From: Candidatus Parcubacteria bacterium
GTDB lineage: Bacteria; Patescibacteriota; Minisyncoccia; Phycocordibacterales; CAIZLB01
Assembly: GCA_039795775.1 (NCBI GenBank)
Contig: JBDKLC010000005.1
Coordinates: 185,624 to 249,623, forward strand
DNA: 64,000 nt
Reading direction: 5' to 3'
Shown here in pieces: positions 4,906 through 25,807 of this stretch. The first letter of the stretch is position 1. The number at the start of each line of letters is the position of its first letter. The position numbers were made by a program, and so were the translations under genes. The notes below the pieces were generated by a model that was not told where the DNA came from, did not search any database, and saw only the letters and a list, made by a program, of their open reading frames with translations.

Positions 4906-5859
4906 ATGAAAAAAGGAATTATTATTCTTGCTAGTTTTATTCTTATTGCTGGTGCAGCGGGGAGTATAGTTTTATACACAAATTCATTGCCACAGCAGGC
5001 CGAAGGTCCACAAATCGCTACTTCGACAGACACTGATGTAACAGGTACGACTGATGTAAAGAGTCAGCAAACAAAAGATGAAGAAATTGCGTTGCAAGTA
5101 AGTACATTACTTTTTACAACTATCTATAAGACTACTATCGATGCGCGGACATTGGGTACACCTTCGACACCAACAGTGGGGTACAGGGTAAACGAACATA
5201 TTTTATTGATTTCAAAAAATCCTGAACCTCTTCGGAAGTATCTTTCATTAAATAAAGATATGAGTGCCCCTGTGCAGGAACGATTGTATAAAGAGTATGT
5301 GCTTTCTCTTGTCCTTCCTCGACCAGCGCAACAAGACAATTTTGATGAATACTATAATGATATGCTCAAAGAAAAAACTACATACGAAGAAATAGATACC
5401 ATGTATTCTGTAGATGCATACCAAACAAGCAGTACTACATATTCTGTCATTATGACAAATTTTTCGATGAGTGGGGCATACAATCTCGATCAACATCTCT
5501 ATACATTTTCTCCAAAAGATTATGTTCTTAAGCCTGCTACATTATTTTCAGTTGAAAATAATAAATTGGTAAAACAATCAGGAAAAGATCTAACAAACGT
5601 GTATGTTGATGATAGAGATCCAACAACAGTCCACCTTCTTGGATTCAGAGCTTTTGGTCTGTGGCCATGCTTTATAAATGAAGCATACAAACTCTATGGA
5701 GATAGATTTATTGTTGTATCAAAGACTCAGTTGAAAGGATGTATTGGCACATCGATAGATAGCCCCGATGATATTCCTGAAAACTTTGATGAAACTCCTG
5801 TCGTTATTTATACGACACCTGCATCTATGATAGAGAAGGTAAAGCAGGCAGCTTTATAA
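4906..5859 (+). CDS. Hypothetical secreted or membrane-anchored protein.
   Basis: The 317 aa protein begins with the signal/anchor MKKGIIILASFILIAGAAG. No recognisable motifs were found. Confidence 0.55.
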   Translation: MKKGIIILASFILIAGAAGSIVLYTNSLPQQAEGPQIATSTDTDVTGTTDVKSQQTKDEEIALQVSTLLFTTIYKTTIDARTLGTPSTPTVGYRVNEHILLISKNPEPLRKYLSLNKDMSAPVQERLYKEYVLSLVLPRPAQQDNFDEYYNDMLKEKTTYEEIDTMYSVDAYQTSSTTYSVIMTNFSMSGAYNLDQHLYTFSPKDYVLKPATLFSVENNKLVKQSGKDLTNVYVDDRDPTTVHLLGFRAFGLWPCFINEAYKLYGDRFIVVSKTQLKGCIGTSIDSPDDIPENFDETPVVIYTTPASMIEKVKQAAL

Positions 5860-10589: not shown

Positions 10590-11101
10590 TAGCTTCGAGC
10601 TTTAACTTTGATCTGCTCTACAGCATTGTTGAAACCAATTGGTGTGAGAGATGCGCCTGATACGTTGCCAAGTTTGAGACTTGCGATACTTTTGCCAACT
10701 ACTTGTGCTTTGAATCCAGAAATGAATTTAGCCTGAAGATCTTTAGAAATTGGGTTGATAGCTTTTGCTGTAACTGTAGCGTCTGTTACTACATCGCCTT
10801 TGAGCACGAGACTTACATCAATACTTTCAGCGCCAGCTGGTGACTTGTATGAGCCAGAAGCTGTGTATGTGCCATCTTTGTATGATTGAGTACTTTTTGG
10901 CTTGTCAGCTGGTGTTGTTGTAGGAGCCGATGTTCTAGAAGAAGTAGTTGTTGAAGATGTTGTTGCAGTTGCACCAGCTGAAGTAGTGTTATCAATTATA
11001 GGAGTAGGTGTTGTTGTAGACTGAGGTCGTGTTGAATACATACCTGCAATAATAAGTGCTGCTACCACGATGATTCCGATATATGTTTTCTTTGAATTCA
11101 T
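10589..11101 (-). CDS. Membrane-anchored FMN-binding domain protein, a candidate flavinylation substrate.
   Basis: An N-terminal TM anchor is followed by a Thr/Ser/Pro-rich linker and an FMN_bind-like domain. That domain begins DGTYTAS and ends GNVSGASLTPIGFNNAVEQIK. The second segment carries the SGAT-type flavinylation motif with Ser in place of the terminal Thr (SGAS). Confidence 0.7.
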   Translation of the reverse strand: MNSKKTYIGIIVVAALIIAGMYSTRPQSTTTPTPIIDNTTSAGATATTSSTTTSSRTSAPTTTPADKPKSTQSYKDGTYTASGSYKSPAGAESIDVSLVLKGDVVTDATVTAKAINPISKDLQAKFISGFKAQVVGKSIASLKLGNVSGASLTPIGFNNAVEQIKVKARS

Positions 11102-23243: not shown

Positions 23244-23690
23244 ATGAAAACACTGCTTATTATTGTGGGTATCGGACTGGTTAGTCTTCCCGTGTATATT
23301 CTTTCTCAAAGACACAAAGGATCTGTCGAACTTGGAAAAGTGTTTTCTTTAGAATCAAAAAGCACTATTTACTATAAAAATATTTCTTTTCACTTTTCAA
23401 CTGAAACAGTCCCATTTTCAAAAGATCCTGTTACTGGTAGAGAGAAATATCCCCACGATATATATGTGGTTGATGTTGTATTGAATGGGCTTGTTTCAAA
23501 TAAAAATTCTGATGTTCCAAAAAGTAAACTTTATTTTGATACGAGTGGAGGGTACCAAGAATTTACTCTGAATTCTATGAGATACGAATTACAATTAGTT
23601 AACTATAAGGATGGTAAGGGTGAATTTATTTTAAAAGAAGTCGGTCCTGGTTTGAAAGATACAGGTATCTCGAAAGAGAAGGCGATATAG
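23244..23690 (+). CDS. Hypothetical membrane-anchored protein.
   Basis: The start is at MKTLLIIVGIGLVSL, an N-terminal TM helix. Confidence 0.5.
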   Translation: MKTLLIIVGIGLVSLPVYILSQRHKGSVELGKVFSLESKSTIYYKNISFHFSTETVPFSKDPVTGREKYPHDIYVVDVVLNGLVSNKNSDVPKSKLYFDTSGGYQEFTLNSMRYELQLVNYKDGKGEFILKEVGPGLKDTGISKEKAI

Positions 23691-23714
23691 CTACTGAGCT
23701 CCGGCTTTCGATCC
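23687..23714. repeat. Partial tRNA 3'-end-like repeat, copy a.
   Basis: atagctactgagctccggctttcgatcc is about 80% identical to the sequence at 25442-25470. It shares the gctccggc core with the 3' end of tRNA-Asn. Confidence 0.5.
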
Positions 23715-23824
23715 TGGCTACCAAACCAGACAAAAGTGGGACGATGTTCGAACTTCTTTTTGTAAAACAAAACCCCGACCTACACCTGTAAGTCGGGGCT
23801 TGTGATGTGTGTCGGGGGGGCGGC

Positions 23825-23983
23825 TTAGTAGCGCCAGCTTGTTCTGGCTCCGGATTGGTTTTTTCGGATTTGCTCCAGGCGCGCGGCTTCCTGTGCTTTG
23901 ATGTGTTCTGGGATTGAAGCGCAGGCTCCTGATTCGGCCCACTTTTTCCAAAAACGGTGCTGTCTTGACTTGCTAGTGTTCAT
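23825..23983 (-). CDS. Small basic protein (52 aa) with a canonical SD.
   Basis: AAAGGAGGTGA sits 8 nt upstream of the ATG. The translation begins MNTSKSRQHRFWKKWAESGACASIPEHIK. The ORF is GC-rich and lies in a different frame from the track ORF at 23718-23951. Confidence 0.35.
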   Translation of the reverse strand: MNTSKSRQHRFWKKWAESGACASIPEHIKAQEAARLEQIRKNQSGARTSWRY

Positions 23984-24146
23984 TCGGGTGTTCACCTCCT
24001 TTCAGGTGTTAATGGTTTTGATCAGCCAGAGGAATTCTAGCTGTATCTTCAAGAACACTTAAATAAATGTCCAAAAAGATACAGCCAGCACGTGAAAAGA
24101 ACTGGCTGTATATTGCAATATATCTAATATCCAGTCAACAGTTTGC

Positions 24147-24240
24147 TCGCTCTTGTGGACGATTTCAGAACGATAGACTGGGCTAAAGAGTATCCATATC
24201 CAACTTTAGCCTTATCTGAACTGAAAGAGCTGATTTTGAT
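24147..24240 (+). repeat. Junction repeat R, about 90 bp, directly upstream of the 24252 gene.
   Basis: The repeat begins ggacgatttcagaacgatagactgggcta and ends gccttatctgaactgaaagagctgatttt. It is about 75% identical to R' at 24819-24900. Its core resembles the sequence at 23738-23753. Confidence 0.55.
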
Positions 24241-24251
24241 ATAATGATGAA

Positions 24252-24746
24252 ATGGAAGCAGAATTTGTTGCCCTAAGAAATAGGTACTTACCAAAGAAAA
24301 TAAAAGCTGTTTTTATATTGGAATCACCACCAGCAGGTCACGGCTATTTCTATAATCCAGCAGGGCGAGTATCCGAAGTATTGTTTAGAGCTTTTATGAA
24401 AGCTGTATTGAATTTCAAACCTGAAACAAAGGAAGAAGGTTTACGGAAACTTGCAGATGAAGGATATTTACTTGTAAATCCAATCTATACACCTGTAAAT
24501 AAATTGAGTGATAAAGAAGCTGACAAACTCATTCTTGCTAATTACGACAATTTCAAAAAAGATTTAGTTTCATTGATTGGAAAATCAAACACTCCGATTA
24601 TTCTAGTAAAGTCGAGCATATTCAGATTATTGGAGAAACCTATGTTGGTTGACGGGTTCAATGTAGTAAATAATGGTGTACTTATTCCATTTCCACTTCA
24701 TTATCATATGAATACTTTTGAAGAGAGAGTAAAAGCTTTGTTATAG
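24252..24746 (+). CDS. Hypothetical protein (164 aa), cargo of the cassette-like array.
   Basis: An intact ORF with no recognisable motif, flanked by the R and H repeat elements. Confidence 0.5.
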   Translation: MEAEFVALRNRYLPKKIKAVFILESPPAGHGYFYNPAGRVSEVLFRAFMKAVLNFKPETKEEGLRKLADEGYLLVNPIYTPVNKLSDKEADKLILANYDNFKKDLVSLIGKSNTPIILVKSSIFRLLEKPMLVDGFNVVNNGVLIPFPLHYHMNTFEERVKALL

Positions 24747-24748
24747 GA

Positions 24749-24812
24749 GTTCGAAACTATTTTAGGGTAAACAAAAATCACCTTGTTTTATAAGGTGATT
24801 TTGCTTGCTCGC
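24749..24812. repeat. Hairpin repeat H, a terminator-like element shared by two cassettes.
   Basis: gttcgaaactattttagggtaaac precedes an 11 bp perfect hairpin, aaaatcacctt and aaggtgatttt. The copy at 25283-25345 is near-identical. Confidence 0.6.
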
Positions 24813-24818
24813 TTTACA

Positions 24819-24900
24819 GGACGATTTTCGAACTATCGATTGGGCTAGGGAATATCCGTTTCCGTCAATTGCCTTAAAAGAAATTGAAAGTCTCTTATCT
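24819..24900 (+). repeat. Junction repeat R', second copy.
   Basis: The repeat begins ggacgattttcgaactatcgattgggctagggaatatcc and ends gccttaaaagaaattgaaag. It is homologous to R at 24147-24240. Confidence 0.55.
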
Positions 24901-24904
24901 CAAA

Positions 24905-25264
24905 CTACTTAACCGGTGTGCCTTGATGAAAATACATCTGCCAATCATTGCCTGTCTTTTTCCATATTGAACTTCTGAGAGAAGTCAGCCTCGTGCCATC
25001 AAGGTTAATTCTATCTGTTTTGAACCTTGTTTGAGCAAATGTTTCAGAGAGAGAAATTATCTCGAAGTCATAAATCTTGTAGGTCGGTGATGGGGCACTG
25101 GTCAGAGAGTTGATTGTTATTTCTTTATTGTAAATTAAGCCTGAACTACCATATTCAATAAAATCATCAGCCAATAACTTGTTCAGTTTTTCAGCCGAAG
25201 AACGATTGTCTTGATTTACAAGGCTTAGTTCAAGTTGATAGAGAGTATCCTTTAATTCATTCAT
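24905..25264 (-). CDS. DUF4440 / SnoaL-like (NTF2-fold) protein.
   Basis: The start is at MNELKDTLYQLELSLVNQDNRSSAEKLNKLLADDFIEYGSSG and the protein ends WQMYFHQGT. The 15 codons upstream of this Met are encoded by the H' repeat, so the shorter start is preferred. Confidence 0.55.
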   Translation of the reverse strand: MNELKDTLYQLELSLVNQDNRSSAEKLNKLLADDFIEYGSSGLIYNKEITINSLTSAPSPTYKIYDFEIISLSETFAQTRFKTDRINLDGTRLTSLRSSIWKKTGNDWQMYFHQGTPVK

Positions 25265-25282
25265 AAGATAATTATACCAAAA

Positions 25283-25345
25283 AGTTCGAAACAGTTTTAG
25301 GGTAAACAAAAATCACCTTGTTTTATAAGGTGATTTTGCTGGCTC
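25283..25345. repeat. Hairpin repeat H', second copy of H.
   Basis: gttcgaaacagttttagggtaaacaaaaatcaccttgttttataaggtgattttgct. Confidence 0.6.
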
Positions 25346-25481
25346 CGGCGGTAGGGATCGGTCACGGATAATAATTGCTACGCAATTATTTCCTCGACCC
25401 CGCCTCACTCGTGGCAGTCGCCTTCTACTATAGAAGGCGACATAGCCACTTCGCTCCGGCTTTTCGATCTCTGCAGTCAGA
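25341..25481. repeat. Degenerate tRNA-3'-end-derived segment with two perfect hairpins, bounded by partial att-like repeats b and c.
   Basis: The 19 nt gctccggcggtagggatcg at 25342-25360 is identical to the tRNA-Asn 3' end at 25532-25550. Two internal hairpins are aataattgc with gcaattatt, and tcgccttcta with tagaaggcga. The right end at 25442-25470 matches copy a at 23687-23714. No cloverleaf can be drawn. Confidence 0.5.
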
Positions 25482-25491
25482 ATAGTAGAAA

Positions 25492-25526
25492 TAAAAAAGA
25501 ACGTCCTTGTGGGACGTCTTTTTATT
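25492..25526. terminator. Bidirectional terminator downstream of tRNA-Asn.
   Basis: aaaaaagaacgtccttgtgggacgtctttttatt has the stem gacgtcc and ggacgtc flanked by A-runs and T-runs. Confidence 0.55.
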
Positions 25527-25532
25527 TCTATG

Positions 25533-25604
25533 CTCCGGCGGTAGGGATCGAACCTACGACCAAGCGATTAACAGTCGCTTGCTCTACCTCTGAGCTACAC
25601 CGGA
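25533..25604 (-). tRNA. tRNA-Asn (anticodon GTT). No CCA is encoded.
   Basis: The reverse complement is tccggtgtagctcagaggtagagcaagcgactgttaatcgcttggtcgtaggttcgatccctaccgccggag. It folds with a 7 bp acceptor stem, a D arm (gctc/gagc) and an anticodon stem (agcga/tcgct) with the loop ctGTTaa. The T arm is gtagg-ttcgatc-cctac. Confidence 0.85.
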
Positions 25605-25807
25605 ATGTGTTCTCCGCTCAAGCTTGCTCTACCTCTTCGTCAGTAGCTGCTTGCTGGAATGTGTTCTTGCGATCCTCAAAGAGAATATCGCTTGAATACG
25701 GTGTCATAATATCCAAAAACCATCAAATATGCAACCCAATGCCTGGGGCCAGAACCTGTGACTAACATCCTTGTGTACAGGCCACCTTGTTCATATATAA
25801 TTATAGT

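Follow-up and report, generated by a model that had tools for sequence, protein, structure and literature searches.

We describe an array of repeats and small genes beside the tRNA-Asn(GTT) gene in a 64,000-nucleotide stretch of DNA from a Candidatus Parcubacteria bacterium (assembly GCA_039795775.1, contig JBDKLC010000005.1, positions 185,624 to 249,623; hereafter the window), in which two repeated elements, R and H, alternate with cargo genes. We report that R is the last ~33 codons of a large serine recombinase (LSR) gene and that the first ~25 nt of R are the P' half of attP. We consider it probable (roughly 0.8) that the array is a graveyard of small islands inserted serially at the tRNA-Asn 3' end by an LSR family specific to the candidate phyla radiation (CPR). 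The array itself is a decayed and inert relic, and its interest lies in the family that it reveals.

Repeats and genes at the tRNA-Asn locus

The features of the locus, from left to right in window coordinates, are listed below (ORF, open reading frame).

23677-23720, plus strand: D3a, left copy of a ~42-nt direct repeat; contains the tRNA-Asn 3' octamer GCTCCGGC and overlaps the stop codon of a 157-aa ORF
23737-23754, plus strand: R0, eroded P' half-site (GTGGGACGATGTTCGAAC) without core and without the downstream coding part
23770-23995, minus strand: high-GC cargo, a 56-aa ORF (23825-23995) with an AGGAGG ribosome-binding site and a terminator with a 14-bp stem (23770-23801)
24037-24114, no strand: three operator-like inverted repeats of the CTGTAT/ATACAG type, between the GC-rich ORF and R1
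24128-24244, plus strand: R1, orphan LSR 3' end with five residual P-side codons (YPVNS), GCTC core (24145-24148), P' half-site and 31 tail codons
24252-24746, plus strand: 164-aa gene, a cargo (passenger) gene of a conserved Patescibacteria family without Pfam match
24748-24804, no strand: H1, 57 nt up to the core; its antisense strand is predicted to fold as an intrinsic terminator from 5 nt off the core
24805-24912, plus strand: R2, orphan LSR 3' end with TTG-CTC core (GCTC at 24807-24810), P' half-site and a 35-codon ORF
24905-25264, minus strand: DUF4440 gene, cargo, 119 aa; convergent with R2 and abutting it
25283-25339, no strand: H2, second H copy, with homology to the sequence beside an intact tRNA-Asn in two related loci (L004 and L041)
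25340-25360, minus strand: displaced, truncated and putatively older tRNA-Asn 3' end, TG plus 19 nt, with GCTC core at 25342-25345; identity to the tRNA ends in the T-loop
25361-25531, no strand: 171-bp remnant separating the displaced tRNA end from the live tRNA; holds D3b (25432-25475) and a terminator, T3 (25486-25530), that abuts the tRNA
25532-25604, minus strand: tRNA-Asn(GTT), the putative attB target, with B' half-site GCTC-CGGCGGTAGGGAT-CGAAC
25618-25667, minus strand: degenerate second tRNA-Asn 5' half with upstream flank, found by repeat search

The repeats are real and non-random: a repeat search recovered every R, H, 19-nt and 28-nt element described in an earlier note on this sequence, and they passed chance controls in which motif counts were compared with expectation in the 64-kb window. 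Specifically, R1 and R2 align over 72 nt with 74% identity (24143-24214 and 24805-24876), H1 and H2 over 63 nt with 95% identity (24748-24810 and 25283-25345), and 15 of 16 positions agree between an R core at 23739-23754 and 24819-24834. The 19-mer at 25342-25360 is 100% identical to 25532-25550, the tRNA-Asn(GTT) 3' end, and has two copies where 0.01 are expected; for the H core there are two exact copies and zero expected. The four same-orientation copies of GCTCCGGC that the note had listed were likewise found, all within 1.85 kb, with 0.64 expected per 64 kb on both strands.

Two of the earlier descriptions needed adjustment. The element given as 28 nt is present and is actually longer, ~42 nt (23677-23720 and 25432-25475); its copies are 88% identical over 23677-23708 and 25432-25463, from where the alignment extends to ~23720/25475 with one gap. 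The palindrome TTCGAA, said to recur at the boundaries, has four of its 24 copies inside 23747-25290 but is not enriched in the window as a whole (24 vs 26.6 expected). The two cargo ORFs do lie in opposite orientations (24252-24746 on the plus strand and 24905-25264 on the minus strand). The statement that no integrase is present agrees with our data: tblastn detected no LSR or LSR fragment in the window, a profile search of the locus gave none, and no integrase domain was seen in ten further ORFs of 270-405 aa, the window not having been scanned exhaustively for tyrosine integrases.

A JGI metagenome contig (3300043397) and Logan contigs of SRR35181295 match the window at 100% identity, and homologues of its genes carry Parcubacteria/Patescibacteria labels. 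Exact-protein look-ups with the 164-aa, DUF4440 and HPF proteins returned the same strain only (JGI 3300043397, Logan SRR35181295 and 3300049847). The breaks between the Logan contigs are accounted for by the H repeat and by tRNA sequence common to other taxa. In a metagenome scan for empty or alternative sites with the neighbouring HPF protein no relative above 49% identity appeared, and those obtained had neither R nor LSR; a scan of viral contigs for R gave no match.

R as the 3' end of a recombinase gene probably split at attP

R1 and R2 (translations LLALVDDFRTIDWAKEYPYP... and LLALQDDFRTIDWAREYPFP...) differ at 31 of 93 nt. In frame 0 half of the 20 differing codons are synonymous (10/20), while the other two frames show two to three synonymous changes and contain stop codons. 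Among 32 R copies from many genomes, the positional entropy over codons 11-31 is 0.94, 0.65 and 1.45 bits at positions 1, 2 and 3, and a single copy carries an in-frame stop. The synonymous bias between R1 and R2 and the third-position entropy across the 32 copies thus argue that R is coding sequence. A degenerate tRNA was considered and rejected as the origin of R, ARAGORN and Rfam finding none and the resemblance being at the level of a half-site only.

A concatenated R query returned short proteins, all with R at the end, one of which (P0006) has 95 extra residues upstream. An exhaustive HMMER search with P0006 as query gave 147 cluster representatives. Among them P0011 and P0033 (549 and 552 aa) have the Resolvase, Recombinase and Zn_ribbon_recom domains with R as their natural C-terminus, and intact ORFs of this kind are also present in two of the loci described below (L007 and L025). 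Family members without R (P0035, and P0009 in L006) instead run into antisense tRNA and end, for example, in ...HPVWLPG* at tRNA-Asn. At least 50 of the 147 representatives are orphan tails, which explains widespread ~40-130-aa "hypothetical proteins" in metagenomes. The view of R and H as a novel composite junction, put forward in the earlier note, is not supported in that form, R being an LSR 3' end with a P' half-site and H a predicted intrinsic terminator at the core.

That R1 and R2 are instead independent genes for 33-35-aa proteins with a function of their own, unrelated to recombination, would fit the conservation at the protein level and the frames intact in 31 of 32 copies. However, R has neither an ATG nor a ribosome-binding site and its ORFs begin at whatever lies upstream; the same sequence forms the C-terminus of 550-aa LSRs; and the left boundary of homology is the att core, which co-varies with the target tRNA. 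We regard independent small genes as very improbable.

A scan with the R alignment, using one genome per species, yielded 37 loci, all in Patescibacteria, which were examined by script. The earlier note had suggested looking in related genomes for further copies of R and H and for a recombinase; R is present in these 37 loci and an H-like flank in L004 and L041, and the recombinase is of the serine type, an LSR without R in nine loci, with no integrase other than LSRs seen in the 37. Orphans, with ≤64 open codons upstream, account for 36 of the 39 R copies. They lie 0.6-10 kb from tRNA-Asn in one fixed orientation, and in 14/14 loci with a tRNA-Asn call the tRNA is downstream and in the opposite orientation. 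In nine loci an R-less LSR gene is present, its ORF terminating within the 3' end of the tRNA at a distance of 5.5-9.7 kb from the orphan R; attL and attR flank a recombinase-carrying element in these nine, whereas the window itself has no LSR.

The cargo between R and the LSR is defence-like and comprises AlwI restriction-modification (R-M) genes with a LexA-fused methylase, Schlafen/AlbA_2, an AAA_21 ATPase, Gabija-like OLD-TOPRIM with UvrD, and Mrr/Z1/DUF4420/HATPase/MTase. As with the DUF4440 gene of the window, the cargo in L003 and L004 is convergent with R and abuts it. In L025 and L004 an upstream LSR continues in frame into the R that belongs to the next unit (tandem insertion), and since these junctions are intact, insertion beside an already occupied tRNA occurs.

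The attL-type (flank/R) and attR-type (LSR/tRNA) junctions all share GCTC, mostly within T(T/G)GCTC. In 9/9 loci, the LSR body and the distal R joined at GCTC form one unbroken ORF of 541-587 aa (544 aa in L022 and 541 aa in L024) that ends in the canonical family tail; the chance of the frame match alone across nine loci is (1/3)^9. The predicted att site thus falls within the LSR ORF, which integration would split, in every one of the reconstituted loci.

Geometry identifies the half-sites. The motif (C/A)GAAC starts at +18 from the core in 30 of 35 R copies and at +13 in 16/16 tRNA-Asn genes. In large serine integrases the motif for the zinc-ribbon domain sits 5 bp further inward in attB than in attP (PMC3783163), a likeness which the CPR family shares, and the offset between R and tRNA-Asn hence marks the first ~25 nt of R as the P' half-site. 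Third codon positions are accordingly constrained in codons 1-10 of R, and the remainder is constrained as protein. For the R variants linked to tRNA-Trp, present in three further loci, the core is TGGCGGGC, which is also the sequence at the 3' end of tRNA-Trp, and the 5-bp shift recurs. An R sister subfamily (ALTEDFRTIDW...; L029-L031 and L038) lies 0.7-2 kb from tRNA-Trp; its core matches the 3' end of that tRNA, which argues that the LSR family has been retargeted between tRNAs.

These data bear on the nested partial tRNA 3' copies of the earlier note. The resemblance of R to the tRNA end is that of attP and attB half-sites and not of nested copies. Only the 19-mer, and probably the ~42-nt repeat bearing GCTCCGGC, stand as tRNA-derived repeats.

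Predicted terminators at the junctions

Read on the antisense strand, the 40 nt that precede the core in LSR genes form strong hairpins with a U-run behind them, examples being L022 (-22.7 kcal/mol, z -5.0), L025, L024, L017 and L004. The predicted dual-coded P-arm terminators are as follows.

L022, 18490-18549
L025, 18115-18174
L024, 16507-16566
L017, 15387-15446
L004, 1290-1348

A GAAA-loop hairpin with U-run is seen directly downstream of the tRNA, on the strand opposite to the last ~20 codons of the LSR (...KRQK.xF....P..). Because the antisense P arm folds as a hairpin with U-run, the last codons of the LSR would double as a terminator for the joined tRNA, a case of dual coding with LSR codons on one strand and a predicted tRNA terminator on the other.

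H1, H2 and T3 share the geometry of these antisense P-arm terminators, and an H-like sequence stands directly beside the intact tRNA-Asn in L004/L041 (75% identity over 81 nt). The 11-13-bp hairpin of H is regular and carries a T-run, and we predict that H is an intrinsic terminator directly next to the crossover core, on the side downstream of the tRNA. That H is a relic of an LSR tail was considered and is not supported by sequence: an nhmmer profile of 14 LSR P arms misses H1, H2 and T3, and no P half-site is recognisable in H when it is aligned with LSR P arms. The 171-bp remnant is colinear with LSR P arms in one alignment (A5), yet not significant by nhmmer.

The plain hairpin of H also bears on whether R and H could be folded single-stranded sites, either in an integron-like attC array or beside insertions made purely by tyrosine integrases with tRNA 3' repeats. 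The 19-nt tRNA repeat and the GCTCCGGC copies do resemble classical tRNA att repeats, and H+R as single-stranded DNA can form a long imperfect stem. Moreover, the locus resembles integron cassettes in being an array of small promoter-less genes in either orientation, with structured repeats between them and no integrase inside. In contrast to integrons, the junctions come from an LSR gene and a tRNA, and the repeats are probably not attC-like folded sites: H is a hairpin with T-run, and the fold z-scores of H+R are only -2.3 to -2.6. Neither IntI nor attI was found in the ORFs scanned in the window or in the 37 loci, where no integrase other than LSRs was seen, and Rfam gave no match at the locus besides the tRNA (no dedicated attC model was run). 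LSR homology accounts for R, and we hold an integron or a purely tyrosine-integrase origin to be highly unlikely, in line with the doubts about an integron in the earlier note.

Proposed serial insertion at tRNA-Asn and its alternatives

Serial insertion by the LSR family, which we favour, would proceed as follows. With attP placed inside the LSR gene, ~33 codons ahead of the stop, its GCTC core would recombine with the terminal GCTC of the tRNA and split the gene. At attR the LSR body would read antisense into the tRNA and stop after 2-16 tRNA-encoded codons, and at attL the last 33 codons (R), P' half-site first, would be stranded at the far end of the island beside the old tRNA flank. Newer insertions at the tRNA would displace older islands outward, and the LSR genes would later have been lost from the window array. 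This would leave R0, R1 and R2, three small cargo genes, the older truncated tRNA end and the terminator modules H1, H2 and T3, which would occupy the exact place expected for the tRNA-proximal arm of each junction. The serial site-specific insertion at the tRNA-Asn 3' end proposed in the earlier note finds support here, for an array that is now decayed and without integrase.

D3a and R0 (23677-23754) are the most eroded junction of the array. R0 resembles the variant tail of the LSR in L021 (GGGATGATGTTCGAC), and D3a is probably an eroded att/tRNA-end relic marking the outer edge of the island. D3 matches the LSR tail of P0021 weakly and in frame (AFDP-7aa-W.D..RT, E 0.05). A reading of D3 as EGDIATELRAFDP used the wrong frame and was withdrawn, leaving AFDP...W.D..RT alone (E 0.05).

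Several points weigh against this history. Neither an LSR nor a piece of one can be detected in the window, and its history is drawn by analogy with the relatives, among which the protein look-ups and the metagenome scan gave no close one with an empty or differently filled site. Canonical LSRs recombine attP with attB only, and tandem arrays would require insertion at attR-like sites, beyond that canonical reaction. Simple decay does not predict a duplication such as that of H1 and H2, with 95% identity and a boundary at the core, and H has no significant match to the LSR P-arm profile by nhmmer. The 19-nt tRNA fragment ends in the T-loop, which implies at least one crossover there and not at GCTC, and an integrase of another type may have acted. 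Recombination by this LSR family is itself a prediction from sequence.

An alternative, which brings the reading of the earlier note up to date and which refines serial insertion by the LSR family rather than excluding it, is that R1-164aa-H1 and R2-DUF4440-H2 are non-autonomous single-gene cassettes, moved as circles with an attP-like H+core+R junction by an LSR acting in trans and stacked at tRNA-Asn. The two units have the same layout, with cores at 24145, 24807 and 25342, and H1 and H2 share the left boundary AGTTCGAAA, with which H1 starts and which is an inverted repeat of TTTCGAACT in R2. An analogous unit, R'-187aa-H_b followed by tRNA-Asn, terminates L004; there is a 43-nt flank duplication in L037; eleven LSR-less loci are free of LSR debris at a profile E ≤1; and just one of 32 R copies has an in-frame stop. 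On the other hand, H shows neither a recognisable P half-site nor a significant match to LSR P arms, the 164-aa homologues in other genomes are not flanked by R, and neither a second copy of either unit nor strain variation was recovered. The identities of 74% for R1/R2 and 95% for H1/H2 fit local duplication or gene conversion equally well as shared ancestry. We think such cassettes possible though doubtful. The "new cassette system" of the earlier note thus stands in part, for the R-gene-H shape of the units, but its junctions derive from the LSR gene and the tRNA.

A wider form of this idea, which we put forward tentatively and consider rather unlikely, is that the tail is a switch of state or directionality. 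Integration would swap the 33-aa tail for tRNA-encoded residues, excision or insertion of a neighbour would restore it, and R-gene-terminator cassettes moved in trans would build integron-like arrays at tRNA-Asn. In mycobacteriophages with integration-dependent immunity attP lies in the repressor gene, and integration by a tyrosine integrase swaps the C-terminus of the phage protein and yields a state-dependent product. There it is a repressor that is affected and a tyrosine recombinase that acts, whereas for the CPR islands a regulatory role of the R tail is hypothetical.

Serial insertion by the LSR family places the islands among known elements. Like A118/LI, phiC31, Bxb1 and SPbeta SprA, the recombinases combine Resolvase, Recombinase and Zn-ribbon domains, with related attP and attB half-sites and a predicted crossover at a short shared core. 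They differ from these integrases in their CPR hosts, in having attP in their own coding region with ~33 codons predicted to be lost on integration, in targeting the extreme tRNA 3' end with a P arm that encodes a predicted antisense terminator for the tRNA, and in tandem insertion at attR-like sites (L025, L004).

In the SSV-type "suicidal" tyrosine integrases of archaeal viruses and plasmids (SSV1, pTN3, pT26-2) the recombination site is likewise inside the integrase gene, a tRNA gene serves as target and the gene is partitioned on integration, and a 2021 review gives self-partitioning integrases as exclusive to archaea (PMC8371274). The CPR LSR gene similarly holds its own recombination site, has a tRNA target and would be split on integration. 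In contrast to the archaeal tyrosine integrases it is a serine recombinase in bacteria, from which a short C-terminal tail is detached while catalytic and DNA-binding domains stay together. Prochlorococcus tycheposons also insert serially at one tRNA, push older elements outward and leave partial tRNAs and integrase debris (10.1101/2020.12.28.424599). The island at the window tRNA-Asn is like them in its tRNA 3' direct repeats with the live tRNA at one edge, adaptive or defence cargo being a further likeness. Tycheposons use mostly tyrosine recombinases and partial-tRNA repeats, with no split recombinase described, whereas the scar of the CPR islands is a recombinase tail.

A non-exhaustive literature search found no prior description of a split serine recombinase or of CPR integrative islands. 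If our reading is true, self-partitioning integrases extend from archaeal tyrosine to bacterial serine recombinases. The islands (5.5-9.7 kb, with R-M, Gabija-like and Schlafen-like cargo) would be a vehicle for the exchange of defence genes in CPR bacteria, whose mobile elements are poorly known. In addition, attP/attB pairs of a compact tRNA-targeting LSR family could be read from genomes, which may be of interest for genome engineering.

As for the cargo of the window, the 164-aa family is Patescibacteria-wide and of uniform length, with 119 clusters at 40-91% identity in variable neighbourhoods. It has no Pfam, PHROG or PADLOC assignment, and homologues at 78-90% identity lie in unrelated neighbourhoods that lack both R and tRNA-Asn. 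Scanning the cargo ORFs and the LSR tails against PHROGs and PADLOC gave nothing meaningful, and the 56-aa ORF has no family match. The patch at 23770-24000 has a GC content of 0.54, compared with ~0.36, and is clearly foreign in composition. With regard to the operator-like repeats beside it, the cargo of a related element (L022) includes a LexA-domain fusion.

Finally, a degenerate second copy of the 5' half and upstream flank of tRNA-Asn sits just 5' of the live gene (25577-25591 equals 25622-25636, and 25602-25613 equals 25656-25667), which suggests a past rearrangement there too. In L009 (17802-17845) and L011 (8592-8635) the tRNA-Asn sequence breaks off past the anticodon loop, and in L014 (11148-11464) two tRNA-Asn halves lie 237 nt apart, all three without an ARAGORN call; the cause could be an intron, or else another insertion at the anticodon loop. 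Just past the tRNA-Asn terminator, L039 (~5345-5370) and L023 (~10932-10955) carry plus-strand T-arm-like fragments (AAGTTCGAGTCC... and GTTCGATTCC...), which may be relics of convergent tRNA genes.

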